Source: a virus
Virus record (IMG/VR): IMGVR_UViG_3300050343_000177
Span: 16,432-80,431 of that record
Direction: 5' to 3' (one strand)
Length of the DNA: 64,000 nucleotides
The translations under genes were made by a program, and so were the position numbers. The notes beneath the pieces were generated by a model. It saw only the letters and a program-made list of their open reading frames with translations. It ran no database searches and was not told the DNA's origin. Below are positions 11 to 36,522 of the stretch, piece after piece (the stretch's first letter is position 1; each line of letters opens with the position of its first letter).

Positions 11-1783
11 TCAAAAGTTACTGTTGAGGATTACGTAAGCCAGTTCAATATCATCTAAGTTGAGACCTTGCGCTAATGCAAATACAATCTCTAGCGTTGT
101 AATACCACCACGTCTATACGATGAGTTAAACCGTTGGCCGACTTCATCCATCTCTTTCGATAGTTTGTCTTCAAACTTTTCTCGTGTTTCAGCTGATGGA
201 TAAGAGTCAGGTTCTTTCACTTTGATTCTGTCTATGAACATAGCAGCGATTGAATGTTTACACATCTTGAAGCTCATCCGATGCTCTCTACTTTCCCAGC
301 TTTCAATACGACCAGCAGCTTGCTGAGTACCTGTGCCTGTTAAGTCTTTTTGACCCATGACTGTTGGCAGCGGGTATCTCAGCTGCCTGTTTGTTTTCCT
401 AGTGTTGGTATCATCTGTTTCCTGGGGTGATCGCAGTATTGCTTGTGCGTGGTTAGGACAACTACAGGTATAAACTGTCGCAGGCTTTAGGGGATTGCCT
501 GATGTAAATACTTCGTCCATCCAAGGGTCTACATCTGTATCTATACGTTCCCATTTTTTCTCACCTGGTTTACCTTGTTGATGATAGTAATCACCGTCAT
601 ATTCATCTATAGATGACTTTGTAAAACTCCAATCAGCAAAAGATAAGGTTGCGTTAGTTACATCTGTATACATCTTAAATTCACCCTTGAAAGGTAAGGC
701 GATGATGTCTACTGTATTTGCACCTGGTGCTTTTTGAATGCCTCGGATTGTAAACGGTAGTACTGTGTATGAGCAGGACGTAATTTCTGTTTCGACACCT
801 TCTGCTGAGAGATACTGTTTCCCGAAGAAACGTTGATAAAGTGATTTGTCATACTGGTATGTGCCTTTTAAATTTATACTTGTACTTGTTGTCTCTGCCA
901 GTATTTCTAAGGATGATATGTCGTATAGTGATGGAGGCAGTTCTTCATTGCCGGGGTCTAATATTTTTACAGTAGTGACGCCAATATCATCTTCAACTTC
1001 TACATTGAACATATATGTGTCGTCAACAAATATGATACTATCTACATCTGTTACGGGTTTCTCGTTATAGAACTCTTTGACGTATACAATTTTTCCAACA
1101 TACTGTTGAATATCGTCAGATAAGCTTGCAGCATCTAATGTTGCTGTGATTTCAACAGGTGTCTCTACTGGTGACTTACCAATATATAGACCTGGATGTA
1201 GTAGATCGTTTAGTACATAATTTAAGGTTGCTTCAGTCTCACCATCTGTTAAACGCTCGCCAATCATCTCAAGTAGCAATCTACTGTCTGCGCCTGAATT
1301 ACCTTGTACTAATATCTCTCTATTTGCTTTTTCGACTGGATATTTGAATGAATCATTCTTGACTGATGTTACAGTTACAAGGTCTACATCTGATTTAGTC
1401 TCACGTTTCATTACATAGTGATTGTTGCTGTCAGAGTTCTTTGTCGCAAACTTGTAACCAGAGAACGTTACATCTACTTCATAGTCTGTGCCTTGATATA
1501 GCTTGGAATCAATTTCTGCTACTGAGTATTCTTGTGTGTATTGGTTCAGCGTCTCTAACTCATACCAAGCAGCACGGTTGTAATACTCGAAGCCTTTACG
1601 CCATTTCACCCAGTTACTATCTAGGTCATACGATTCAATGACACTGCGATGTACTGACGAACCATACCGCCTACTACTGGGATAGTAGCCAGCAGCACCA
1701 GCTTCTTTACCTTTGTGAACAGCTTTAGTTGGCTTGAAAGAGAGTGCGTTGGATTTACCAAAGCCGTTCTGCTTCCTTGGCAT
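11..1783 (-). CDS. Late-region protein with C-terminal SWIM-like zinc finger
   Basis: 590 aa ORF; YTCSCPNH...MCKHSIAA matches a CxC-Xn-CxH SWIM-type pattern with a long insert. Confidence 0.55.
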   Translation of the reverse strand: MPRKQNGFGKSNALSFKPTKAVHKGKEAGAAGYYPSSRRYGSSVHRSVIESYDLDSNWVKWRKGFEYYNRAAWYELETLNQYTQEYSVAEIDSKLYQGTDYEVDVTFSGYKFATKNSDSNNHYVMKRETKSDVDLVTVTSVKNDSFKYPVEKANREILVQGNSGADSRLLLEMIGERLTDGETEATLNYVLNDLLHPGLYIGKSPVETPVEITATLDAASLSDDIQQYVGKIVYVKEFYNEKPVTDVDSIIFVDDTYMFNVEVEDDIGVTTVKILDPGNEELPPSLYDISSLEILAETTSTSINLKGTYQYDKSLYQRFFGKQYLSAEGVETEITSCSYTVLPFTIRGIQKAPGANTVDIIALPFKGEFKMYTDVTNATLSFADWSFTKSSIDEYDGDYYHQQGKPGEKKWERIDTDVDPWMDEVFTSGNPLKPATVYTCSCPNHAQAILRSPQETDDTNTRKTNRQLRYPLPTVMGQKDLTGTGTQQAAGRIESWESREHRMSFKMCKHSIAAMFIDRIKVKEPDSYPSAETREKFEDKLSKEMDEVGQRFNSSYRRGGITTLEIVFALAQGLNLDDIELAYVILNSNF

Positions 1784-2250
1784 TAATACCAGCCACCTTG
1801 GATGCCCAAGTTAGGACCATCAGAGACTGCTCCACCAGTTGACTGTCTTGCTGCCCAGAGTGCTTTACCTTTAGGTATATACAGTGCTCGATTGTAAGCG
1901 TCATCGCCTACTTGAGGCACTGGTGTGAGAACTTGGGGAAGTTCAAAAACTGTTAATGTACCAATAGTTGTACTAGATACTACTGAACCAAAGTAAAATC
2001 CTTGATTAGGTCTCAAGTAATCATTAGCAGTACTCAGAAACAAATTAACAGTATAAGCTGTTTCACCTCTTGAGATTAAATACAGTGTTTCAATTACTGC
2101 ACCATCAGCTCCTGTTGAATCCAAAAGCAACTCAGCAGTGTTAGAACCACTTACATTAATAGTATCATTTGTTGCTAAGTCTAAGTTTACGATTGTATGT
2201 AATACGTGGTCTACCAGAAGTGGTTGCTTGTTTGTAGATGTTGATGCCAT
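1783..2250 (-). CDS. Hypothetical virion structural protein
   Basis: 155 aa beta-rich ORF, translationally coupled in the late operon. Confidence 0.5.
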   Translation of the reverse strand: MASTSTNKQPLLVDHVLHTIVNLDLATNDTINVSGSNTAELLLDSTGADGAVIETLYLISRGETAYTVNLFLSTANDYLRPNQGFYFGSVVSSTTIGTLTVFELPQVLTPVPQVGDDAYNRALYIPKGKALWAARQSTGGAVSDGPNLGIQGGWY

Positions 2251-2252
2251 TT

Positions 2253-2831
2253 TTACTTCCTCTTTTTCTTAATTGTTGTTTTACTTGAGCCTGGGGTCAT
2301 TGGATTCATTGAGTTCTGTGGTGCCATTCCACCTGCTGCTTGTTCAGCGCTTTGCATGCCTTGCATCATTGGTGGACCTGAGCTTCCAGGGAAAGCACCA
2401 GGGAAAGCACCAGGGGCTGGTTGTGCAGGCATACCTGTCATCCCCATTGGACCTGCATTCAAGCCGTATTTAGAAGCATCACCTGCAAGTCTTCCAGATT
2501 CCATACCATCGGGAACCATTGATACTCCTGAGGTATCAGGCTGCTGTTGCATTCCAAAGGGAGCTTGTGAATTTAAGCCGCGACCTGTAGGGAAGAACTG
2601 TGGCAATCCTGAGTTATCAACGTTCATTGGGTTGACCATTCCGGTACCCATCTGTGCATAGTTCTGCTGATAGTCACCAGAGATACTTGTTGCTTGGATT
2701 GCCGGAGATGCATTGTCAGTTACATTCATCGCATTGTTATTCTCAGGTCCACCTGGGACAACTGCCATGTTCTTATTGATTTTAAATCTCTGAGGGTCAA
2801 GCACTCGTGCGTTATCTTCTTTGTTAGGCAT
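2253..2831 (-). CDS. Hypothetical low-complexity (M/P/G/Q-rich) late protein
   Basis: 192 aa ORF abutting both neighbours. Confidence 0.6.
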   Translation of the reverse strand: MPNKEDNARVLDPQRFKINKNMAVVPGGPENNNAMNVTDNASPAIQATSISGDYQQNYAQMGTGMVNPMNVDNSGLPQFFPTGRGLNSQAPFGMQQQPDTSGVSMVPDGMESGRLAGDASKYGLNAGPMGMTGMPAQPAPGAFPGAFPGSSGPPMMQGMQSAEQAAGGMAPQNSMNPMTPGSSKTTIKKKRK

Positions 2832-2832
2832 C

Positions 2833-3303
2833 TCAAACCTCCCGGTTACGATTGTTTAGACCAGGAAATCCTTGGCCGCCTTTAGCCATGTTATAAAGAC
2901 GATTTTCTATGTTTGTCGTTCCAAATTGTGGCTCATTCATTTTAAGACGATTAGAAAGAGCGTCTGTCTCCATTTCTTCTGGATCTTGCTGTGGAACAAT
3001 AGTGCTAGAAACTTGTGTATCTACACTACCAGTCTGATGCTGTGGTGTTGCTTGATTACCAGGGCTATCTTTATAAGCAAAGGTTCCTGCCCCTTGAATT
3101 AGTTCGTTGACTGGAATATTACTATTACCGTATGTGGTACGGTCACCTCTTACAGCCTCACCAATGCCACCATCCATTGCTGATTGAACGCCTTGGATGT
3201 ATGCATTCTCGCCAGCTTGACGCATTGCATTACTTGCATCAATTTTATTCTGTCGTCTATCACGACCCATCATAATTTTCTGAGTCCCCGGCATTACAGT
3301 CAT
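2833..3303 (-). CDS. Hypothetical late protein
   Basis: 156 aa ORF with TAGAATAG motif upstream. Confidence 0.6.
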   Translation of the reverse strand: MTVMPGTQKIMMGRDRRQNKIDASNAMRQAGENAYIQGVQSAMDGGIGEAVRGDRTTYGNSNIPVNELIQGAGTFAYKDSPGNQATPQHQTGSVDTQVSSTIVPQQDPEEMETDALSNRLKMNEPQFGTTNIENRLYNMAKGGQGFPGLNNRNREV

Positions 3304-3338
3304 AACTTTACTACTTCATTGCTAAATCTATTCTACAC

Positions 3339-3836
3339 TTAACGCCACTCATTGTTAAGCATGATTCGTGAGCCTATTGCAGTATCAGCAGGGCCAGGTA
3401 CGGCCATAATGAATTCAGAACCAGCTCGTTCGAATGCGTAGCGACGCACTTCAGGCCTTCTATAGTTAGGAACATACAATGTCTCCGCTAAACGGTCTAC
3501 TTCACGCAAATAAATTTCACGGAAGTATTCATCACCTTTAAGAGGATCGGACGTATTGATTGTCCGTTGTACGTCTCCACTAATTATTTCCTGACGTGAA
3601 GGATTCAGAATACGGCTGCCGTCAGCATCAAAGTAATCATCTGGAATTGCAGCACTTGCTTTCCAAGCAATGTCGCAACGTTTAATGTGATACACAATTT
3701 CGTTATACCAAAGCTCGTCTGGCACTAATGCCATTGCTTCTTCTAATCGTGCACGGTCACCAGCAGGAATCTGAGCACCTGAATTAAAACCAAGGTGATA
3801 ACGAGTTTTAGACTTGAGATATTCGTCTAACTGCAT
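3339..3836 (-). CDS. Putative head completion / head-tail connector protein
   Basis: 165 aa helical ORF downstream of the capsid genes; assignment is positional only. Confidence 0.4.
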   Translation of the reverse strand: MQLDEYLKSKTRYHLGFNSGAQIPAGDRARLEEAMALVPDELWYNEIVYHIKRCDIAWKASAAIPDDYFDADGSRILNPSRQEIISGDVQRTINTSDPLKGDEYFREIYLREVDRLAETLYVPNYRRPEVRRYAFERAGSEFIMAVPGPADTAIGSRIMLNNEWR

Positions 3837-3837
3837 A

Positions 3838-4173
3838 TCACATACCTGGGTTGTTGTAAATATCTTTTAGGACTGACTGCAATTGATTGCGGTCCATAGG
3901 ATTCAGTGTTCCTTGTGCTTGCATCTTTGCAAGAATGGCAGCTGCTGGTGACTCTTGCACCATCATTTGACGTGCGCCCATACCTAGGCCACCACCAAGG
4001 ATTGCTCCAACAAGTCCACCTGCCATACGTCCACGTGCTCCGCCAATGCCGGGCAATGCACCAAGCACACCACCGACTGCTGCACCGCCACCCATAGCAA
4101 CGGCTGGATCTGGACGTTTCTCAGCATCGGCCAAAGCCTTTGCCATCAAGATATCTTCGATACTGCTAGCCAT
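3838..4173 (-). CDS. Gly-zipper-like hypothetical protein
   Basis: 111 aa with GxxxG-rich hydrophobic segments. Confidence 0.55.
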   Translation of the reverse strand: MASSIEDILMAKALADAEKRPDPAVAMGGGAAVGGVLGALPGIGGARGRMAGGLVGAILGGGLGMGARQMMVQESPAAAILAKMQAQGTLNPMDRNQLQSVLKDIYNNPGM

Positions 4174-4198
4174 TGTCTAAGACACTAATACTATTAAT

Positions 4199-4558
4199 AG
4201 TTTAACTAATAAAGATTAAGTCCTTTTCAGAAAGGAATGTCTCCAGTACTGAACTCGCTAATCCTTGCTCGTGCAAAATTCTGTGCTTCTTTAGCTCTGA
4301 TTACTCCATCAAGTTAATCTAATAACTACTTGTATCTTCTCTGGAGAAGTACCATGTTCAACTAACAAGTCATAGTAGTCGTGTAATTGTACATCCACGT
4401 CTACTGGATCGAGTCCTGATCGTATCATACGATCTTGTAACCCTTCTGCATTCATAGCGGATGCAGTAGGTCCAACTTGAAAGTTGATTCCTTTCTTCAT
4501 GATTATCAGTCACTCATGTCAATTACCAGTTTAACTAATAAAGATTAGGTCCTCTTCA
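4199..4558. repeat. 31-bp direct repeat pair (4199-4229 and 4528-4558) flanking a small gene
   Basis: agtttaactaataaagattaRgtcctYttca, 2 mismatches; duplicates the 3' end of the HhH gene. Confidence 0.85.
4227..4500 (-). CDS. Small inserted (moron-like) gene, one probable frameshift
   Basis: ORF 4309..4500 continues in another frame as ...LDGVIRAKEAQNFARARISEFSTGDIPF*. Confidence 0.5.
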
Positions 4559-4959
4559 ATCAACTGTTCCCAATTAACACGTGGGATATTCTCTAGCTGC
4601 TTAAGGTTTGCAAAACGCTCACCACTAAGTGACATCCGCATCTCTACAATCTTCTTAGCTGTTGCAAAGCCTACACCTGGTAGACGCTTCTGAATGTATT
4701 CAGCAGTGGCAGTGTTCAGATTGAGTCGTGTCTCTTCCAAAGGAACGACGCGATTAGGTGCTTCTTCTTCTTTAGTCTCAAGGATGGGAGCTGTCACTTT
4801 TGCTAGACGACCTTTGCCTTGTTCATATGGGACCATCTGCTCTAACGTCAAGTAAGTAACATTACCCGTGGCATCTCTCACCATTGCGTAATCTTTATCA
4901 TGCTTACTAATGAACTCTACAAGCTTACCTGTTTTTGTGTCTTGGAATAGATTACTCAT
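4531..4959 (-). CDS. Helix-hairpin-helix (ComEA-like) DNA-binding domain protein
   Basis: RLNLNTATAEYIQKRLPGVGFATAKKIV...FANLKQLENIPRV. Confidence 0.8.
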   Translation of the reverse strand: MSNLFQDTKTGKLVEFISKHDKDYAMVRDATGNVTYLTLEQMVPYEQGKGRLAKVTAPILETKEEEAPNRVVPLEETRLNLNTATAEYIQKRLPGVGFATAKKIVEMRMSLSGERFANLKQLENIPRVNWEQLIEEDLIFIS

Positions 4960-5003
4960 ATCAATTGTGTGTCTTGAATCATTCTAACTTCTTAAGTATA
5001 GGC

Positions 5004-5036
5004 ATAAAAAAGAGCCTCATTAGAGAGACTCTTGTT
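5004..5036 (-). terminator. Probable intrinsic terminator after the capsid genes
   Basis: AAGAGTCTC...GAGGCTCTT hairpin followed by a T run on the minus strand. Confidence 0.55.
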
Positions 5037-5049
5037 TATATGAATTAGA

Positions 5050-5673
5050 TCAATAGCCTTGACCAGCTTCAGTTGCGAAAGGTACGTGAGCGTCCTCTAC
5101 ATCAGGAGCAGAGGCTGCGCGGTAGTAGCACACTTCAACCAGAAGGGCAGAAGGTGAATTACGGCAAGCACCAGCAGAAGGATCCAACGAAGCAGTGAAG
5201 GCTGCGTCAGTTGTCAGCTCAATTGCAGTATCTGCAGATACAGGAGTTCCGCCAAGGATGTTACCAAGAGCAGATGTTGCGCCTTCTTCGGGGAAGTACA
5301 AATCAGCTTCAGCAGTAACAGCAACTGAGGTTGGAAGACCTGTAGCAGCTTTCACTACAACAGTGTCACCAGCAGCATTGGCCTTTACGCCAGGTGCGGA
5401 AACAGCTGTGCGATATACAACAGAACCAGCAGGAACAACAAGGGCTTTATCCTTACGGGGCTTGTCATCTTGACGAAGGTCAGGTGACAGAACTTGTGCG
5501 GCATAATCGCCTGCTGCAAGTACACCGTTAGCATCAGTGACGTTGTCATTATCAGGGTTAAGTACAACCGCACCAACAGCGCGATAGAACTCAACCCCAG
5601 GAAGAGCCACACAACCTTGCTCGCGATATGCGTTCAAGTGGGCTACATAGTTACCGGGAAAAATTACGGACAT
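5050..5673 (-). CDS. Putative capsid decoration / minor head protein
   Basis: Directly downstream of MCP, high-expression codon usage; ATG at 5673 with GGAG upstream. Confidence 0.5.
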   Translation of the reverse strand: MSVIFPGNYVAHLNAYREQGCVALPGVEFYRAVGAVVLNPDNDNVTDANGVLAAGDYAAQVLSPDLRQDDKPRKDKALVVPAGSVVYRTAVSAPGVKANAAGDTVVVKAATGLPTSVAVTAEADLYFPEEGATSALGNILGGTPVSADTAIELTTDAAFTASLDPSAGACRNSPSALLVEVCYYRAASAPDVEDAHVPFATEAGQGY

Positions 5674-5687
5674 AGTTAGTTCTCCTA

Positions 5688-7012
5688 TCAATATACGAAA
5701 GAGTAACCAACCGTAATGAAATCCTTATTAAGGGTTTCAAAACCGGCGAACAGACTCCAAATCATGATGATGAATCGTGAGAAGTCATCATTGTTATTCA
5801 GAAGAATCTGAGCGTTGTTTCCACCGATGCCGACGCCGACAGCCTGAGGACCGAAGAAGATCAACTGAGCTGCATCATAATCAGCAGCACCAGCAACTTG
5901 CGTCAGTAATTGTCAGGTTGTACTGAGTCTCGGGAAGGTTGGTGGACTCGAACCAACGGACACCCTCAAAGAGGAAGCCAGTAGGCATTACAGGTTGACC
6001 GGCAACGAAGCCAGCTTGACCATATGCAGGACCCATTCCTTGGAAGAAGTTCGCAGAAGGACCAGCCAATGGGTTCATGGGATCAGCCATGCCCTGACCG
6101 GGATAACGTGCGATTTCGCGGAAGTCACTGTTCTGACGCAGATGCATCATTGCAGTGGGGTCGACGATGCAACGGTAGTAACCATCAGCGAAGGTAGGAA
6201 CGTTGCGCTTACGCATGTCCTTGACGACTTCGAGAAGGTCAGTACTGACATCGAACTTGGCAGATTCACCAGAGGTATACTGAGCAATATCAGAAGCACC
6301 GGCTGCCTTTTCTTTACCACCGGGAAGGTAGTAACCGCCTTGCTCACTAGAAGACTTGCCACAGGCTTCAGCCTTGAGGAGTTCATTAGCGAAGACGCGA
6401 TCGCGCCAACGACGGTAGTCATCAAGCAGCGTCAAGCTACCGATGGACTGGTGAAATACGTTGAGATTACCGGTATCAAGCAGCAAGCGCTGAGCGGTGA
6501 TCAGGGTCTCGCGAGCTACCTTGAAGGTAGAAGGCTGAGTGGTGTCGCGGGAATCAGCAGGGCCTGTATATTCCCTCAAAGTGACCAGCACTTTGTCCTT
6601 GACGATGTTGCGTGCGGAGGCGGATCCGAGAGTTTGATCAGCGGTGCGCTCACGGGACTCCTTAGTGCCGGGCTTGCCCCAGAAGCGGTAACGATCAAGC
6701 TGCACGGTTTGACCGGGCTGCTTACTAAAATCGTGAACGACTACTGGCTCAACTGCCATCTCAATGATGTAGGCAGGATGAGGGCGATAAAGTTCTGCAC
6801 CAAGAAGCTTTCACAGGGTACCGACTATATCTTCACCTTTAAAAGGGCTGGACGCTTAATTAAGGAGACTTTACTCCTCAGGTAGTCTGTGAACGTTCCT
6901 TAGGTGTACCTAAGGCTTCGCTGCTGATTGCCATATCTTTCGACTTAGGGTTCCAGCAATTCATCCAGTTTTAAAACGACCAAGTGTTTTACCAATCGTT
7001 ATCAATCCACAT
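5688..7012 (-). CDS. Major capsid protein (N4-gp56-like), split by a group I intron; frameshift near 5890
   Basis: Exon 1 MWIDND (7012-6995, AGGAG upstream); exon 2 KLLGAELYRPHPAYIIEMAVEPVVVHDFSKQPGQTVQLDRY...; C-terminus ...FFGPQAVGVGIGG...DDFSRFIIMIWSLFAGF...YSFVY* in the shifted frame. Confidence 0.85.
6811..6994 (-). ncRNA. Group I intron (IA-like) in the major capsid gene; 3' boundary uncertain
   Basis: P AATTGCTGGAA (6961-6951), Q AATCAGCAG (6929-6921), R GTTCACAGACTA (6894-6883), S AAGATATAGTC (6833-6823); P1 AACGATT/GGTCGTT with U-G; P3 CTGGATG/CGTCCAG; P7 GACTA/TAGTC; extra hairpin after P7. Confidence 0.9.
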
Positions 7013-7133
7013 TTCTGGGATAACTCCTAAACTAAAAGGTTTATAAGTGACTTCGACGTGTCACATAATACGATATTAATAGTTATATTAAAGAAGTAGT
7101 TGATGTATACCGAAGCCTCGGTGTAAAGAGAGT

Positions 7134-7649
7134 ATGTCAGAATTTATTGATGTCAAAGAATGGGTACCAGTTCATACACTTCCAGGGTTCGAATGCTGCA
7201 TTGAATATTATGTATCTCACGATGGAAGGGTTATGTCAACTAAAGGTGGCAAAGAGAAAATCCTCAAAGGAGCTGTTATTAAAAATGGCTATCACAAAGT
7301 CACACTTCAGCAACGATTAGGGCAGAAAGGAGAAATTCAACCCTATGTTCATACACTTGTAGCCCTTGCGTTTTTACCACCTCCACCTTCTCCTATAGGA
7401 CGTACACGTGGTTCATCTGTTGTGGATCACAAAGACGAGAACAAGTTAAACAACTGTGTGTCTAATCTTCACTGGATTTCTGTCAAGGAAAATATATGCA
7501 AACATCCATATCGTAAATTTCAATCAACTCAAAAGACGGATGATGAAGTTCTTGTTCAACAGTGCAGGAATCGATATTCACATAAGATGGCTGTACGTCG
7601 TCAAAGAGAGAAACAAAAAGCGGTTAAAATAGTAGAAAGTGATAATTAA
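7134..7649 (+). CDS. NUMOD4-HNH homing endonuclease (free-standing)
   Basis: EWVPV..LPGFE...YYVSHDGRV (NUMOD4) and VHTLVALAF...VDHKDENKLNNCVSNLHW (HNH). Confidence 0.85.
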   Translation: MSEFIDVKEWVPVHTLPGFECCIEYYVSHDGRVMSTKGGKEKILKGAVIKNGYHKVTLQQRLGQKGEIQPYVHTLVALAFLPPPPSPIGRTRGSSVVDHKDENKLNNCVSNLHWISVKENICKHPYRKFQSTQKTDDEVLVQQCRNRYSHKMAVRRQREKQKAVKIVESDN

Positions 7650-7653
7650 AAAA

Positions 7654-8319
7654 ATGTCAGATAGTCTCGTATTAACTGGTGTCAAAGATGTCAGGAAGCA
7701 CACTGGCACTGAGATGCTTCGTCTTAATCCAAAGGGTGGTGGTGATACTTTCTCTGTTAAGCGTTGGTGGGTTGCTGGTGGTATTAACACCTGCTATGAA
7801 CCTTGTACTGTCTTCAATGTGACGACTGCTGCTGGCACAGTAAAGCTTGCTCTTGCTACTAAAGCAGAAGGCTCACGTGTTCGTATTGACCACGATGGTT
7901 CTTTTAACTTCAGCTTCTTTGGTGCTGGTGAAATCACACGTGCTGCACTCTTTACTGATGCTTTTGAAATCATTGAGCATTACGTATTCCCCAGTATCTC
8001 TGGTGGTAAAGTAATGACCGTAACTCCAGCTGGTGGTGCTAGTCGTCCTGTCCCTGGTCCACCTCCGAAGACATTTACTGGTGTAACACTCACAGGTGCT
8101 GATACTGCAACTGATGCTGATACTGAAAGTTACACCGCTAGTAAGACTGGAACTGCTACTGACGTAACCTACGTCCTTACTTCTGATGATTCCAATGATG
8201 TAGTCTCTACTCTCGATGTAGAGTTTAATGGAACAGGCTCACGTGTTCTCACTTTGACTGGCTCTTCTACTGAAGTTGGTAACAGTCAGACAGATACGAT
8301 TACAGTTGTTGTTAGCTGA
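7654..8319 (+). CDS. Putative virion protein with Thr-rich Ig-like C-terminal domain
   Basis: Pro linker then Thr/Val-rich beta domain ending TDTITVVVS. Confidence 0.5.
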   Translation: MSDSLVLTGVKDVRKHTGTEMLRLNPKGGGDTFSVKRWWVAGGINTCYEPCTVFNVTTAAGTVKLALATKAEGSRVRIDHDGSFNFSFFGAGEITRAALFTDAFEIIEHYVFPSISGGKVMTVTPAGGASRPVPGPPPKTFTGVTLTGADTATDADTESYTASKTGTATDVTYVLTSDDSNDVVSTLDVEFNGTGSRVLTLTGSSTEVGNSQTDTITVVVS

Positions 8320-8989
8320 TTCGTCTAGCGATATACCGGCGTTCATCGTCGGTTAATTTTTCTTCTTTAACATACATATCTCCCACTAAGCAATCGACGT
8401 TATACGAAAGTCTCCTTGTATTACGTGCGTGAAAGCCTATATAAAAGAAATCATTCTCTCGGATATACATCCGATCGTATGGGTGCTCTTCCCTATCTGC
8501 TGTATACAGCCTCACATCTAACCAGCTATCAATATACTTATTGCCTGTTTTAAGATTATTTAAATCAATACTCAGCAGTCCACCAAACTTACGATAAATA
8601 CCCATCCTAAATCTTGCGGGTAAATACGTATTGACTACCGTTAGATCTTCATTCAATAGAAGCTCTGCACTCTCCCATCCAGTATCTTCTTCATTTCTTT
8701 TAGAAATTACAGCACATTCCCAACCTTCTTCTTCAAAGCATTTACCAGCTGCAGTTGGATCAAGTTTTACATTAACTTTGACAAAGTAATTCTCTGCACC
8801 AAACAGACCAACACTGTCTCGATACTTCAGTGTGAAAGGAATGTAGCTTACACTTACATTCTCAGGCCGTGTGATAGATGGACCGTTGACATAATTCAAC
8901 GAACGGCTGCTAGATAATCCAGCCGGAGCTGTGTTATCACTGGAGCCATATAACATTGTATTACGTAGGATCTCTGCGGTAACGTCCAT
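8312..8989 (-). CDS. Hypothetical late protein
   Basis: 225 aa ORF with TACAATAG upstream. Confidence 0.6.
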   Translation of the reverse strand: MDVTAEILRNTMLYGSSDNTAPAGLSSSRSLNYVNGPSITRPENVSVSYIPFTLKYRDSVGLFGAENYFVKVNVKLDPTAAGKCFEEEGWECAVISKRNEEDTGWESAELLLNEDLTVVNTYLPARFRMGIYRKFGGLLSIDLNNLKTGNKYIDSWLDVRLYTADREEHPYDRMYIRENDFFYIGFHARNTRRLSYNVDCLVGDMYVKEEKLTDDERRYIARRIS

Positions 8990-9018
8990 CTTCCATTGGC
9001 GCTCTTTCTTCTATTGTA

Positions 9019-9961
9019 TTAGAGATACTCAGATACCATATCACCACGTGTTTTAAGCTCACGTAATGCTTTATGCTCCAATGTTCTTACTCGGTCACGG
9101 CTCATATTAAGCAGTTGACCAATTGCTGTCATTGACATTGGCTCAAGATACTTCTTCACCAATTCCATAACGCATACTGATCACAGCAGCTTGCATTTCA
9201 GGTAAGTCTGCAATCAACTCTCGCATATCTTCCTTGATACAGTTACGCTCAAGAATCATCTCTGGTAACTGTGTCTCGTCTTCAAGCAGGTCGATCAATG
9301 CTGTGTCACGGTTCTCACCAATCTTGATTTCAAGTGATGTTGGCTGACGTGCCTTACACATCAAATCTTTAATCTCATCAACTGTTAGCTCAAGATGATC
9401 GGACAGCTGGAAGACAGATGGCATATAACCATTCATCTGACTAAGCTCACGCTGTGCTTTCTTTCAGCTTGTTTAAGATTCTCAGTAACGTGGATAGGAA
9501 GTCTGATGGCACGGGACTTTTCAGCGATTGCCCTTGTAATACCTTGGCGAATCCACCAATAAGCATAAGTGCTAAATTTGTAGCCACGACCAGGGTCAAA
9601 CTTTTCAACGCCACGGACGAGACCAATCGTTCCTTCTTGGATGATGTCCAAGAGTTCCATATTTCTCTTCGTGTATTTTTTGGCAACAGAAACCACGAGA
9701 CGAAGGTTAGCTGTGACCATCTTCTCTTTGCTTTCTTGCCATCACGTATATCTCTCGTTTGATTTGCTTCATGGTCAAATCATAGCATCTGTGCTATCCT
9801 TGATTCATCAAGAGATAGCTCTTTGCGTTACTCTTCTAGTTCCATCAATCGTTGAACTTTACGACCTAGAAGATTTCTTCGTCGTGCTCAAGTAATGGAA
9901 TGCGTCCAATGTCACGTAGATATGAACGTACTGAATCGCCTGAAAGTCTTGGTTGTGCCAT
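9019..9961 (-). CDS. RNA polymerase sigma-70 factor, cyanobacterial group-2-like (frameshifted in this sequence)
   Basis: Region 1.2 [16 protein letters not shown]; region 2 [13 protein letters not shown]...[19 protein letters not shown]; region 4 [14 protein letters not shown]. Confidence 0.92.
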
Positions 9962-10015
9962 ATAGTTCTGTCGCTACTTATTAATCATAGCCTCTAATTC
10001 TAGCTACGTCAACAC

Positions 10016-10303
10016 TTAACCGCGCATTCTTGCAAACCTAAGTGACTCATTAGGTGCCTCTTCTCTACCTTCTAATGCTTCTACTGCCATAGCTTGTGCA
10101 GCATGTTCGTTAAACCCTTTGGACTTATAGTTATCTTCGTATTGCTGATACTTTTCTACTGAACCTTCGAAGTCATCGTGTGTAATCATCTCTGCTGCCA
10201 TTTGATTAGCAGCTTGATCTGGAATACCATCTGACTTTAGATGTTTCCAGATATTCTGATATAGTTCAGGAGTTACCTCTTCGCCAGCTTTGCGAATACT
10301 CAC
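10016..10303 (-). CDS. Hypothetical protein with internal repeat (GxxxxAAxxMAxE twice)
   Basis: 95 aa ORF. Confidence 0.6.
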   Translation of the reverse strand: MSIRKAGEEVTPELYQNIWKHLKSDGIPDQAANQMAAEMITHDDFEGSVEKYQQYEDNYKSKGFNEHAAQAMAVEALEGREEAPNESLRFARMRG

Positions 10304-10383
10304 AACAATTACTAATCAGACTATTAATATTGTAGTCAATTGATTACATATACTGGTTCTTAGTAGCAACTTCACCACCAAGG

Positions 10384-10759
10384 TCAGGGCTCATACCCAG
10401 CTGCCATTGCTTTACCGTTAGCAATACCGTGCATAAACTTAGCTTTCTCAGGTGATTGCATCACTGAATTCATCTTCATCAGTGCAGAGCCAGACTGATT
10501 GGCATACAGTGCTTCTGACATACGCTCGGCAGCAAACAGTTGTGCTTTTGCTTCTTGCATCAGATCCTGCAGCAGTCTGACTACGGACTTGGCCCATTGC
10601 ATTAGCAGCTGCTTGAGGTGCAGCACTGCCAATGTTTTGCAATTGATTCTGTTCAGCAAGACGCTGATTGTTATATGGCTGTGTATTCACAGAAGGCTTA
10701 GACGCGCCACCTAGGTCATATGCATTCGGACCAGGACGAACAGGACTTTTCATATCCAC
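10384..10759 (-). CDS. Hypothetical late protein (frameshifted)
   Basis: Two overlapping ORFs of similar composition join into one. Confidence 0.5.
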
Positions 10760-10884
10760 CTAGGCCTCTCTGCATAGAGGACATTCCTAGGGTTTCCTGT
10801 GCAACTGAATAAGGTGATTCATTACTTAATACCGTTCTATATATCTATTGTAAGGGGACTGAATAAACAATCCCCTAACAGTTA

Positions 10885-11791
10885 TCAGCCCTCTTGGACG
10901 AGCATCTTGGCTTGCAGTGCACCCTGTGGTGCCTGTGCCAAATACTTCCAAGCATTCTCAGGGTTGTTATCCATCATCTGACCGAAGCCACCCCAGAAGT
11001 CATTAGCCTGATTCACCTGACGACCAGGTGTAGGCATTGCCATCTCAGGACGCTGGAAGTTCTGAGGAACGTTATTCTGCTCTTGTGCACGAATCTCAGT
11101 TCTCGAACTGATCGCGAGCTTGCATACTGCTGCATCTGATACTGCCTCTTCTGCAGTAGGAGTTGGATAAGGACCTTCAGGACCATAGAAGTCATTGACG
11201 TAGTCAGCAAGCACGTCTGGGTCAGTCAGCATGAGGTTCATTGCTGCACGCTCTTCACCAGCTGCTTCAAGCATCAGTGATTGAGACTTGGACAGCTTGA
11301 ACTTGCTCGATCAGTGCATCTTCTACAGCACAGGCATACTGGTTAAGAAGCACAGGGAGCTTCTGCACCGAAGTGCTCAAGAACTTCAAGACTTGCGTCG
11401 CTGATCTGACTTAGATACGCGTCGCTTACCGCCTCTTGTTTGAGGCTGAAGGCCCTGCATTGGAGCCTGGGCCGTATAAGCCTGGGGTTGAAACTTGGGG
11501 ACTGTAGGTCGGCTGCGCCGAAGGCACCGACATTTGCTTGGGGAGTTGAAGCCCAATTGACTTGTTGAGAAGCCTGCGTTGTCGGAGTCTGGTATGCCGA
11601 GTACGGAACCTGGGTTTGGGAGGGGCTGCTTGTATTCAAGCTTGCGCTGAGCGCCTGGAACGCCTCCTGCCATGGATTGCCCTGTGGTGCCGAAGCCTGC
11701 TGCGCCTGGGCCGGTGCCTGGTAAGTTGGCCGGAATTTGTGGGACCTGGTGCCTGGACCTGATAGGCCTGCGAGATTTGGGGCTGGCTCAT
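10885..11791 (-). CDS. Putative capsid scaffolding protein (frameshifted)
   Basis: Q/P/A-rich, directly after portal; fragments 10885..11274 and 11343..11639 plus N-terminus MSQPQISQAYQ. Confidence 0.5.
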
Positions 11792-13657
11792 CCCTGGTTG
11801 GGAGACCGATGCCTGGATGCGGCGCTCGTCGGCATCGGAGAGCTTGTCGGGGCTTGGGCCGGAATCGCTTGGTTTGTAGCTTCCACTGTAACTTAACTCC
11901 TTACGTAAAAATTCGAGTGATCTATATAAGAACCCTGTGATATCAAGATTCGGATCAGATGCCAATGGCAAATCTGGCGTCTGTGGGTGTGGTAGTTGAT
12001 AAAGACTACCGAGTAATCCAATGAATGAATTTAAAGACTGTTGCGTTTGTTGAACCATCCTGAACGGATAGCCTGAAAGCATTGCTGCTCTCTCTTCATC
12101 CGTTTTATTTGGGAATAGATACTTAAGTGCTTCAATAGAATCGACACCTAATTCTTGAAGATTTCGGACGACAATACTGTTATTAAGAATGTCATCTGTA
12201 CCTTCTTCAAATACTTCTCCCATCCAACGCCAGCTAACTTTAGTGCTACCGTCAGGAACTAATCCAACTACTCCTGGAGGCATTTCGCCTGACTCAAGTG
12301 TAGCACGGATGTTTTCTTCTCTTTGTTGAATAAACTTCTGAATATCTTTCTGATATTTCTCCATTGCTTTCGTAAATGCTTCTTCATCACCAAACTCTTC
12401 AGGCAATGGAATCTCTGGTTTTTGACAAGACCAATCGCTACTGCAAATGATCTTGGAACATCTTCTCTTCATGATTAATCATTAATGAAACAACTTACAT
12501 AGACCGTAAGTGAAAAGACCTTTTGCTTTTTTCTCTGCTGTAGCTGCTACACGACCATAGAGTGTCTTGATTTCATAAGCAGTACCAGCAGTACCGATGT
12601 CAAGGTCATCTACACCGCCTAGTGCTAGACGAATCTCTGATCTGTAGTTCTTGACATATAGATTCTGGTCACCAGACACACTATCGGGTGTCATGTACTG
12701 AACACGGTCAGTTGGTTCAAGGTTTGCAATAACACGTGGGACTTTGATCTGTCCATCAACTGAACGCCCACCAAACGGCTGACTGACACGAGTGCTGTGC
12801 ATTGACCCACCAGTCATTGGTGCAAATCCTGCTTGTGAACTAATCGTTGGCTTGAAACTACTCTCGTCACCAGACTCAATCAGGTCGTGACGTGGGCGAC
12901 TTGATACCAGTGTTGGGTTACCAAAGAACTTGAGGTTCTTACGAATGTTTCTGGTTAGCTCATCGTGATACAGAATCTGATGTGCAAGCCAATCGAACTC
13001 ACCATTACCAGTTGCTTCACCTGTGCAATCCATATGATTGAACACTTCAACTGCTGGAATGAATCCAAGTGAGTTTGTCAGAGTCTCTGTAGACCCTGGC
13101 ATATTCATAGGCAGTGACCGTTCTCATTATCAAACTCAATCTTCTCATCAGAGATTGTTTGTTCGATCCTGTCTTGTAAACTTTCAGTCGAATATACTTT
13201 TTCTTACCACCACGACTTGTTGCATTGTCGCATATGCACCAAGCGTTTGATTGCTTTACTGCAAAGCTATAGACAAGCACGATGCTTTCTAATTCATTAT
13301 TCTGATCTCGATATGCTCTATAACTATCTTTTGGGAAATACAGAAGTTGATAATCATCACCTGTTGGCCTGAAGTAAAATAACCCTTGACCGTCACATAA
13401 GAAGTAATCAACAATACTGTCGAGCTTCATATCAAGCATGTTGTGCTCACATACTTGTTTTATAAACTCTCGACGTTTACCATATGAATCTTGTTCAGCA
13501 AAGAATTCAATTCCTCGACGCAGCATAAACATCCGCATCTGTGCTAGATGGGAAGACACAATCATGCTGTCTACAGACAGATCACCCCTACGCTCTTTAG
13601 CTGCAGTAAGATTTGTTGAAATCTCTGTCTGTACTTGAACTTGCTTACATATTTCAT
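11790..13657 (-). CDS. Putative portal protein (frameshifted; ends approximate)
   Basis: About 600 aa over three fragments immediately downstream of TerL; LGFIPAVEVFN...GNGEFD motif. Confidence 0.7.
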
Positions 13658-15158
13658 TCCTATGCACCACGTCTTAATAATCCACCCATCGTAAGCACCA
13701 TAGAATCTACAGCATCATCATGCTGTGAATGTCCGAAATTAATAGTTCATCTTCAAGGATATTCCACTTACGCCATTTGTTCCATACACTTTTTATGTTC
13801 ATACAACCAAGCACTCCACGTAATCTTGCTAGTTTGTCTCCTTTAAATCCTTTCACTGGTGAGCATGCAAGGTTATATAAAGCACGTTGCTCAAACATCA
13901 CACGTTTAAAGTCACCTTCAAATGATGTCTGATATGCAACAGCTTCTGGCCATATCATGCACGGCGACATCGTAGGGAACCATTGACCTTCATCGTTTTC
14001 AAGCAAGATGTTCCAGTCAGATAAGCATCTCACATAAAGTATCCATCTTCTCTAGATTGCCCATTGTTCGTGACCGACGTTGGTCAATGAGATATATCTT
14101 TCCGTCTTTGATGCCACCTAGTGTCATTACAGTCCAGTCATTCTTTTCGCTTAGGCCAGCACTAAGGTCAATACCTACGCCTAAGCAGTCATAATCTTCT
14201 GGGACTACATCTTTGACAATCAGTTCTGGTGAGATACCGACGTCTGCATTACGAACTGCTGTATTGAGATACTGATATGCAAAGGCAACACGATCTTCCA
14301 TCTTGCGTTCGTTTAGATACTTCATTGACCAGAACTCTGGCCAGTACGAACGTTGCCTACCGTCAGCGTCTGTTATGACAGCTTTCTGTACAATCTGTTT
14401 CCAGTTGTTCTTGGGGACAAAGAGAGTGGCGTGAATATCGTCAAAGTGGAAGCGGGTTCCCAAACAGATAGCCCGTGCACCTTGGAACATCGTTGGTGCG
14501 ATAACGTTAGACCACGTCTGCTCCATCTCACGGCGAATGTCTGGGTTGTTGATTGAAGCGGCAGATTTGATAGGGTCATCAATAAGCACCAGCTGCGATC
14601 GTTTAGAGGTGATTGCACCTTTGAGACCACCACACGCAATTGTGAAAGCTTCTTCACCTGCTGTGTCAATGCCTGCAAAATCATAGTCAATACTCCAGTA
14701 TTCATCTGAACGTTTAATCTTTGAAAGTCTCACCATTGGAAAGACTTCACGGTATTTATTACTTGTCAAAATACCTTTAATGGTTGCACTCTTTGCTCGA
14801 CTGATGTCAACCATGTATGCAATATATAGTATACGCAACATCTGCTTTGCTGCGGTATGTCTACCAATCATCCATGCTGCAAATAGTCCAAGCACTGTTG
14901 ACTTAGCTGAACCACGTGGTGCAAGGATTGCAGTATTAGGTCCACCAATGCCCATCAAGCATTCACTATCTACACCAGTACATAACTCTGCGTGCCACTC
15001 ACGCATATGATTAGCAGGAGCTTTACCCATAAATACACAGAAGTCTTTGAAGTCATCTCGTGCTCTAATACTTCTGGTGATGGTGGCTTAGTTGTTACTT
15101 TAGTTGCCGTCATTAATGCTGAACGACGATAAGCTAATGCTGCACTTGGTATTGCCAT
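13650..15158 (-). CDS. terL: Terminase large subunit (frameshifted; 3' end approximate)
   Basis: Walker A APRGSAKST, Walker B LVLIDDP, GTRFHFDD, nuclease GIDL...NDWT...HDDAVD. Confidence 0.9.
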
Positions 15159-36450: not shown

Positions 36451-36522
36451 GGGGCATTAGTGAAACGGTTATCACAATAGATTGTCTATCTATTATTAGC
36501 AGTTCGAATCTGCTATGCCTCG
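36451..36522 (+). tRNA. tRNA-Asp (GTC), CCA not encoded
   Basis: Acceptor GGGGCAT/ATGCCTC, D stem GTGA/TCAC, anticodon stem ATAGA/TCTAT with loop TT-GTC-TA, T arm AGCAG-TTCGAAT-CTGCT, discriminator G. Confidence 0.88.

Follow-up and report, generated by a model that had tools for sequence, protein, structure and literature searches.

A group I intron in the major capsid gene of an S-EIVl-like marine cyanophage and its truncated copy in a metagenome-assembled genome

Group I introns interrupt the terL genes of Jug phages, of Shewanella phage KASIA and of Shewanella phages 1/4 and 1/40, and Lactobacillus phage JCL1032 carries group I introns in two late genes (PMC12880540, PMC8541194, PMC6669764). 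Such late-gene introns resemble the one described here in that they interrupt an essential virion or packaging gene and are often about 200 nt long, with or without a homing endonuclease. A limited search of full-text literature found, in the text that it covered, no published group I intron in a cyanophage major capsid gene.

Among cultured phages, the nearest relatives of our intron are the psbA introns of S-SRM01 (80.1% over 157 nt, E 9e-32) and of S-PM2/S-RSM88 (76.5% over 161 nt, E 1e-24). These cyanomyovirus introns share with it the absence of an ORF, a compact size (about 210-230 nt) and a cyanophage host. They also have the same P3-P8 core, with P7.1 likewise inserted between P7 and P3' (CCUGAGG...CCUUAAUAACAGG). 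Moreover, the S-PM2 psbA intron is adjoined by the gene of a free-standing endonuclease, F-CphI, just as ours is adjoined by an HNH gene. On the other hand, P1, P8 and P9 differ, and our intron resides in an S-EIVl-like major capsid gene rather than in psbA. The relationship suggests that this intron lineage has passed between a gene for photosynthesis and one for the capsid in different cyanophage families.

Natural phage group I introns may also lose internal segments. The lysin-gene intron of Streptococcus thermophilus phages reportedly has natural deletion derivatives (Foley et al. 2000, J Virol 74:611, cited in PMC8541194), to which the copy of our intron discussed below, with internal segments missing as well, would be comparable. 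In this copy, the deletion takes away the 3' splice site together with two exon codons, and it is found in an error-laden assembly.

Group I intron in the major capsid gene

The analysed stretch of 64,000 nt (hereafter, the window) comprises bases 16432-80431 of an 80,431-nt IMG/VR virus record that is rated 100% complete. Its source is a metagenome-assembled 80-kb genome from a marine phage related to Synechococcus phage S-EIVl. When the region was compared with cultured phages, megablast gave no match; by tblastn, S-EIVl (KJ410740) was found as the sole cultured relative of the capsid gene, with 70.8% protein identity. An intact orthologue of the capsid protein matches phrog_1357, 'major head protein' (E 1.6e-19). 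The capsid ORF of S-EIVl (383 aa, L001:2977-4128) starts with (M)FIDTDFPKILGAELYRPHPAY, has an N-terminus that reads FIDTDFPKILG and contains no intron. This ORF, which uses a GTG start, is missing from the GenBank annotation of S-EIVl; the annotation of L001:2902-4128 (KJ410740 60784-62010) consists of a hypothetical protein in antisense orientation and a 3' fragment. Capsid relatives were found in 479 stretches of IMG/VR, the best 80 of which were fetched. About 70 of these best 80 have the uninterrupted reading MWIDNDFPKLLGAELYRPHPAYIIE, and the intron-carrying ones read the same after splicing. The layout of the gene in the window is as follows, with helices named on a structural alignment (A2) described in the next section:

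6995..7012, minus strand: exon 1 of the major capsid gene, ATG (7012-7010) TGG ATT GAT AAC GAT (MWIDND), with the 5' splice site after U6995
6811..6994, minus strand: remnant of an ORF-less group I intron
6980-6975, minus strand: internal guide of P1
6968-6962 with 6854-6848, minus strand: P3
about 6958-6895, minus strand: P4-P6
6889-6883 with 6827-6822, minus strand: P7
6882-6863, minus strand: P7.1 hairpin
6846-6836, minus strand: P8
6821-6819, minus strand: 5' strand of P9.0
6818-6809, minus strand: 5' strand of P9 and GAAA loop
5895..6806, minus strand: body of exon 2 (LLGAELYRPHPAY...), residues 1-306 of which are 100% identical to the protein of the closest relative (G001; loci L003 and L100)
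5688..5893, minus strand: C-terminal part of the capsid gene (..FFGPQAVGVGIGG..), in another frame owing to an extra base

On the minus strand, MWIDND, which ends at U6995, is followed by TGG TAA and then by the intron; the 18 nt of exon 1 also head the intron-less alleles of relatives. A check with covariance models gave an Rfam RF00028 match at 7039..6802(-), which spans the full model (1-253) and scores 80.9 bits (E 2.6e-20) against a gathering score of 50. No ORF was found inside the intron, and no intron besides this match was detected either in the window or in the whole 80-kb record. A genuine group I intron is therefore present six codons into the major capsid gene. This is what the original prediction had proposed from the letters of the window, down to the lack of an ORF and the position after codon 6, and the same site is occupied in relatives.

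The intron presumably self-splices. The last exon bases, AACGAU (7000-6995), pair with GUCGUU (6980-6975) to form P1, with a U6995.G6980 wobble at the 5' splice site. At the other end, the 3' strand of P7 (UAGUCG, 6827-6822) is followed by GGUACCCUGUGAAAGC and then directly by CTT CTT GGT GCA GAA. Immediately past TGA 6813-6811, the frame of exon 2 is open from AAG 6810 onwards. The terminal G that P9.0 and P9 would place is absent from the window, lost in a 24-nt gap.

Intact copies and the fold of the intron

The intron of G001, at L100:6287-6534 on the minus strand, is the intron of the window save for two gaps in the latter. It continues with ...GUGAAAGCAGUGGAUAUAUACG, after which TTT CCT AAA CTC CTT GGT follows. 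Searches with a 20-mer from the intron core and a 25-mer spanning P7-P9 retrieved 10 IMG/VR contigs and 9 metagenome contigs, respectively. Of these roughly 19 matches, at least two represent the same sequences in both collections. All of them are located at the same site of the capsid gene, and the 3' end is complete in every copy except one that lies at a contig end. At the intact 3' end are P9, closed by a GAAA loop, a P9.0 of 3 bp that covaries, and the terminal G. With RF00028, intact relatives reach 89.6-94.9 bits, and upon splicing they would encode MWIDND/FPKLLG (the slash marks the exon junction), the same N-terminus as in the approximately 70 intron-less alleles. The original prediction had expected just such an ND-FP-KLLG reading for homologous capsids, and the fetched relatives bear it out.

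Helices P1, P3, P4, P5, P6, P7, P7.1, P8, P9.0 and P9 were named on alignment A2, which comprises 11 sequences. Its 58 named pairs are occupied by standard pairs in 98.2% of 433 cells; none of 500 shuffles scored as high, and slid controls were only 31-46% paired. Compensatory changes were observed at eight pairs, distributed over P3 (two pairs), P6, P7.1, P8, P9.0 (two pairs) and P9. For example, P9.0 alternates between GUA/UAC, GUG/CAC and GAG/CUC immediately before the terminal G. The pairing in A2 thus displays a P3-P4-P5-P6-P7-P8 core with a P3/P7 pseudoknot.

On this basis, splicing of the intact intron may be pictured as follows. The last six exon bases, AACGAU, would pair with the internal guide GUCGUU and leave the U.G wobble at the cleavage site, while the P3-P8 core would fold together with its P7.1 extension. 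The 3-bp P9.0 (GUR/YAC) and the GAAA hairpin of P9 would position the terminal G, and ligation of the exons would yield a capsid protein identical to that of intron-less alleles. One element of the original prediction is not supported: a P10 helix between the intron 5' end UGGUAAA and exon UUUCC contains a mismatch, and L099 and L104 have no equivalent pairing.

Several variants were found at the same end of the gene. L064:2264-2497 (equal to L104:3397-3648) is a variant of the window intron with 83% identity. Here the 5' splice site is shifted downstream by one base (GAC U/, with UU CCG at the start of exon 2), and in L104 the exon AAUGACU and the guide GGUCAUU are altered together. In L117 (Ga0181392_1003288), the 3' strand of P7.1 reads CGCGGG, compared with CACAGG or AACAGG elsewhere, and a G.U pair maintains the pairing. 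Another group I intron, unrelated to that of the window, is inserted in this capsid gene 6 nt upstream (MWID/NDFPK). It is represented by L004:2237-2500 (RF00028, 92.1 bits) and is present in five nearly identical copies (L004, L036, L037, L039 and L041), with P1 formed by AUCGAU and GUCGAU. Thus, S-EIVl-like marine cyanophages have two different group I introns within the first seven codons of the capsid gene and, given the shifted site of L064/L104, three splice positions within 7 nt at its 5' end.

Truncation of the window copy

In a 5.9-kb neighbourhood, the window differs from G001 by 47 substitutions and four indels:

9148: extra base in the sigma-factor gene
between 6859 and 6858, minus strand: 8-nt deletion (CACAGGAA in the closest relative), which leaves the basal P7.1 stem (CCUG/CAGG) without its 3' strand
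6807..6810, minus strand: AAGC junction of a 24-nt deletion (gap at 6807/6806), relative to G001 and to every copy that reaches the 3' end
5894..5894, minus strand: extra G, giving a +1 frame shift and a false stop at 5883-5881

With the 24-nt gap, P9 and P9.0 have lost their 3' strands; the terminal G and two or three codons, including TTT CCT for F-P, are gone as well. For the AAGC at its junction there are two readings, the end of the P9 loop with the first bases of the 3' strand and the Lys codon of exon 2 plus C; the K of the window's KLLG could equally well be the last part of the GAAA loop. In contig L109 the intron is intact, and the letters after it, ..CCT AAG CTT CTT GGT GCA GAA CTT TA, are the exon-2 letters of the window. 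Since these letters match, the 24 nt were lost between two AAGC 4-mers. The original prediction had described half of a P9 GAAA hairpin fused to exon 2 at an AAGC microhomology, with the intron 3' end and about two codons missing. The rest of P9 in intact relatives and the exon letters of L109 agree with that description in full.

Three features had escaped that prediction: the 8-nt deletion, the frameshift at 5894 and a cryptic splice position at G6808. The 8-nt segment, which carries the CAGG strand, is retained in all relatives that cover it as well as in the S-PM2 and S-SRM01 introns of psbA. Owing to the extra G at 5894, the capsid ORF terminates at 5881 (..DASCWCC*) after only 310 aa, and the last 58 capsid residues (FFGPQAVGVGIGG...) are out of frame. 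A second intron as the cause of the short ORF was ruled out by this single base. In a scripted comparison of 81 loci, the C-terminal motif was in the capsid frame wherever it was present, except in the window, where it is out of frame; a single locus did not contain it.

We next consider whether the allele could splice as written. Using G6812 as the terminal G leads to a stop or to the +1 frame, just as originally predicted, and G6814 fares no better, giving a stop or the wrong frame. Joining U6994 to G6801 removes the conserved KLLG. The only canonical pair that remains in frame is U6995 with the cryptic G6808, which would give MWIDND/LLGAELY without FPK, so no splice in the window yields the N-terminus of the family. 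Since P9, P9.0 and part of P7.1 are missing and the frame is broken again downstream, we infer that a working capsid protein cannot be made from the window sequence as written.

Is the truncation then a property of the phage or of the record? The original prediction had left undecided whether the deletion arose in the read or in the phage, and the evidence now tips towards the read or the assembly. Two relatives whose genomes are complete or nearly so, G003 (84 kb, with terminal repeats) and G004 (78 kb), supplied stop-to-stop ORFs of at least 70 aa, and tblastn frame changes on the window's genome were counted. The record showed 21 frame changes with G003 ORFs and 24 with G004 ORFs. In the reverse direction there were only 6 (G003) and 1 (G004), and the comparison of G003 with G004 gave 2-4. 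Besides the capsid gene itself, the genes affected in the window include the following:

about 13663-15158: terminase large subunit, broken into four frame segments
11435-13634: 767-aa virion structural protein, broken into three segments
9022-9973: sigma-70, broken into three to five segments

Frame-breaking indels occur across window 9022-15158 and also in G000 530-4368 and 60557-78739; the broken genes named here are intact in relatives. Four of the genes broken in the window's record are covered by G001 (97% DNA identity), and all four are intact there. At the same time, these genes bear the mark of purifying selection. All 21 substitutions between the window and G001 in capsid exon 2 are silent, and third codon positions account for 40 of 60 substitutions in sigma-70 and for 85 of 120 in the virion protein. 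Purifying selection on genes full of frame breaks argues for indels of technical origin rather than for decay. Moreover, the junction of the 24-nt deletion had no match in metagenome contigs, a collection that may leave out the window's own record. With more than 20 frameshifting indels in conserved genes and a junction seen in no other contig, the lesions (both gaps and the extra G) are most probably errors of sequencing or consensus building, and the real phage very probably has a full intron like that of its near-identical relative. The loss of an intron 3' end within an essential gene is therefore not to be read as biology here. Despite its rating as 100% complete, the record is unreliable at the level of indels, and other frameshift or split-gene oddities in it are therefore equally suspect.

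As to the kind of error, the distribution of indels is informative. Relative to G001 it is patchy, with none in window 510-5893 (5.4 kb) and 40 in 9465-13623. Uniform random long-read error is contradicted by the 5.4 kb of adjoining sequence without an indel, and homopolymer-type errors (454 or Ion Torrent) by the 1-nt indels inspected, which are not in homopolymer runs. We infer that strains present together were merged into one consensus, which failed where they differ. The 5' end of the capsid gene would be just such a place, as strains may have no intron, intron A or intron B. Furthermore, the two largest indels of the 13-kb comparison (8 and 24 nt) both fall within the intron of about 250 nt. 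The probability of this under a uniform distribution is about 3.5e-4, which points to something specific to the intron; it could be population heterogeneity that confused the consensus or real decay.

The latter would mean that the record depicts a dead capsid gene, in which slippage between the AAGC repeats had occurred in the phage lineage or in a defective sub-population, for example a non-viable genome packaged or replicated with the help of co-infecting wild-type phage. The 4-nt direct repeats on both sides fit this account, as a deletion between such repeats is also the expected product of replication slippage in vivo. So does the confinement of both large gaps to the intron, and the lysin-gene intron of S. 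thermophilus phage, as far as the title of that study tells, offers natural deletion derivatives as a parallel. However, neither the capsid protein nor the remainder of the intron has changed, which would leave no time since the lesion, and no other contig has the junction. In addition, more than 20 other frame breaks affect essential genes under purifying selection, and a genome dead in terminase, capsid and virion protein would hardly be abundant enough for an 80-kb assembly. We therefore regard a real deletion of this kind as unlikely.

Less likely still is that both deletions are real in a phage that persists, either because the lineage splices at the cryptic G6808 without F-P-K or because a defective genome is complemented by co-infecting relatives. 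If true, the window would offer a natural snapshot of intron decay within an essential structural gene.

Splicing of the truncated intron through U6995 and G6808, taken by itself, has in its favor that, as read from the sequence, no other canonical pair preserves the frame together with nearly all conserved residues. The resulting capsid would begin with MWIDND/LLGAELY and lack F-P-K. Yet the intron would have to act without P9, P9.0 and its normal terminal G, all of which covary in the family, and without the basal stem of P7.1, which is conserved as far as the psbA introns. Moreover, FPK is invariant among the marine relatives fetched (FP is found in S-EIVl too), and the capsid frame is broken again at 5894. 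Such splicing is very unlikely. It is even harder to believe that splicing is not needed because the capsid starts at Met 6759 (MAVEPVVV...) downstream of a relic intron, since, although the ATG there opens a 292-aa ORF, this Met is internal in every homologue, the 25 residues upstream of it (MWIDNDFPKLLGAELYRPHPAYIIE) recur unaltered in nearly all of the marine relatives fetched despite silent codon differences, and the ORF is frameshifted at 5894 regardless.

The most probable reading of the window thus remains an intact intron distorted in the record by errors of sequencing or consensus building.

Neighbourhood of the capsid gene

Similarity to G001 across window 510-13623 is mosaic. There is a single mismatch in about 4.5 kb (510-5000), divergence is about 0.8% around the capsid gene, and it reaches about 5% at 9.4-13.6 kb. 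This pattern suggests recent recombination among co-occurring strains. Further away, the window encodes a tRNA:

36451-36522, plus strand: tRNA gene (RF00005, 58.6 bits)

Immediately upstream of the capsid gene, and divergent from it, is the endonuclease gene mentioned above:

7134..7649, plus strand: free-standing HNH endonuclease gene (NUMOD4 + HNH_3)

Its position next to the intron recalls the collaborative homing model of F-CphI and psbA, and we considered whether the HNH gene is linked to the intron in the same way. A homologue is found upstream of the capsid gene in 8 of 12 loci with the type-A intron and in 5 of 5 with type B, but it is also present in 62 of 72 intron-less loci. Since most intron-less relatives have the gene as well, no collaborative-homing link is indicated, and on this evidence the HNH gene is a lineage-conserved neighbour rather than a partner of the intron. 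The extent of the HNH match varies among loci. In all but one of the intron-carrying loci that have the gene (L098, L004), the match extends to residue 162-171 of the 171, whereas that of most intron-less loci ends near residue 120. The C-terminal part of the protein, possibly DNA-binding, thus differs between them.
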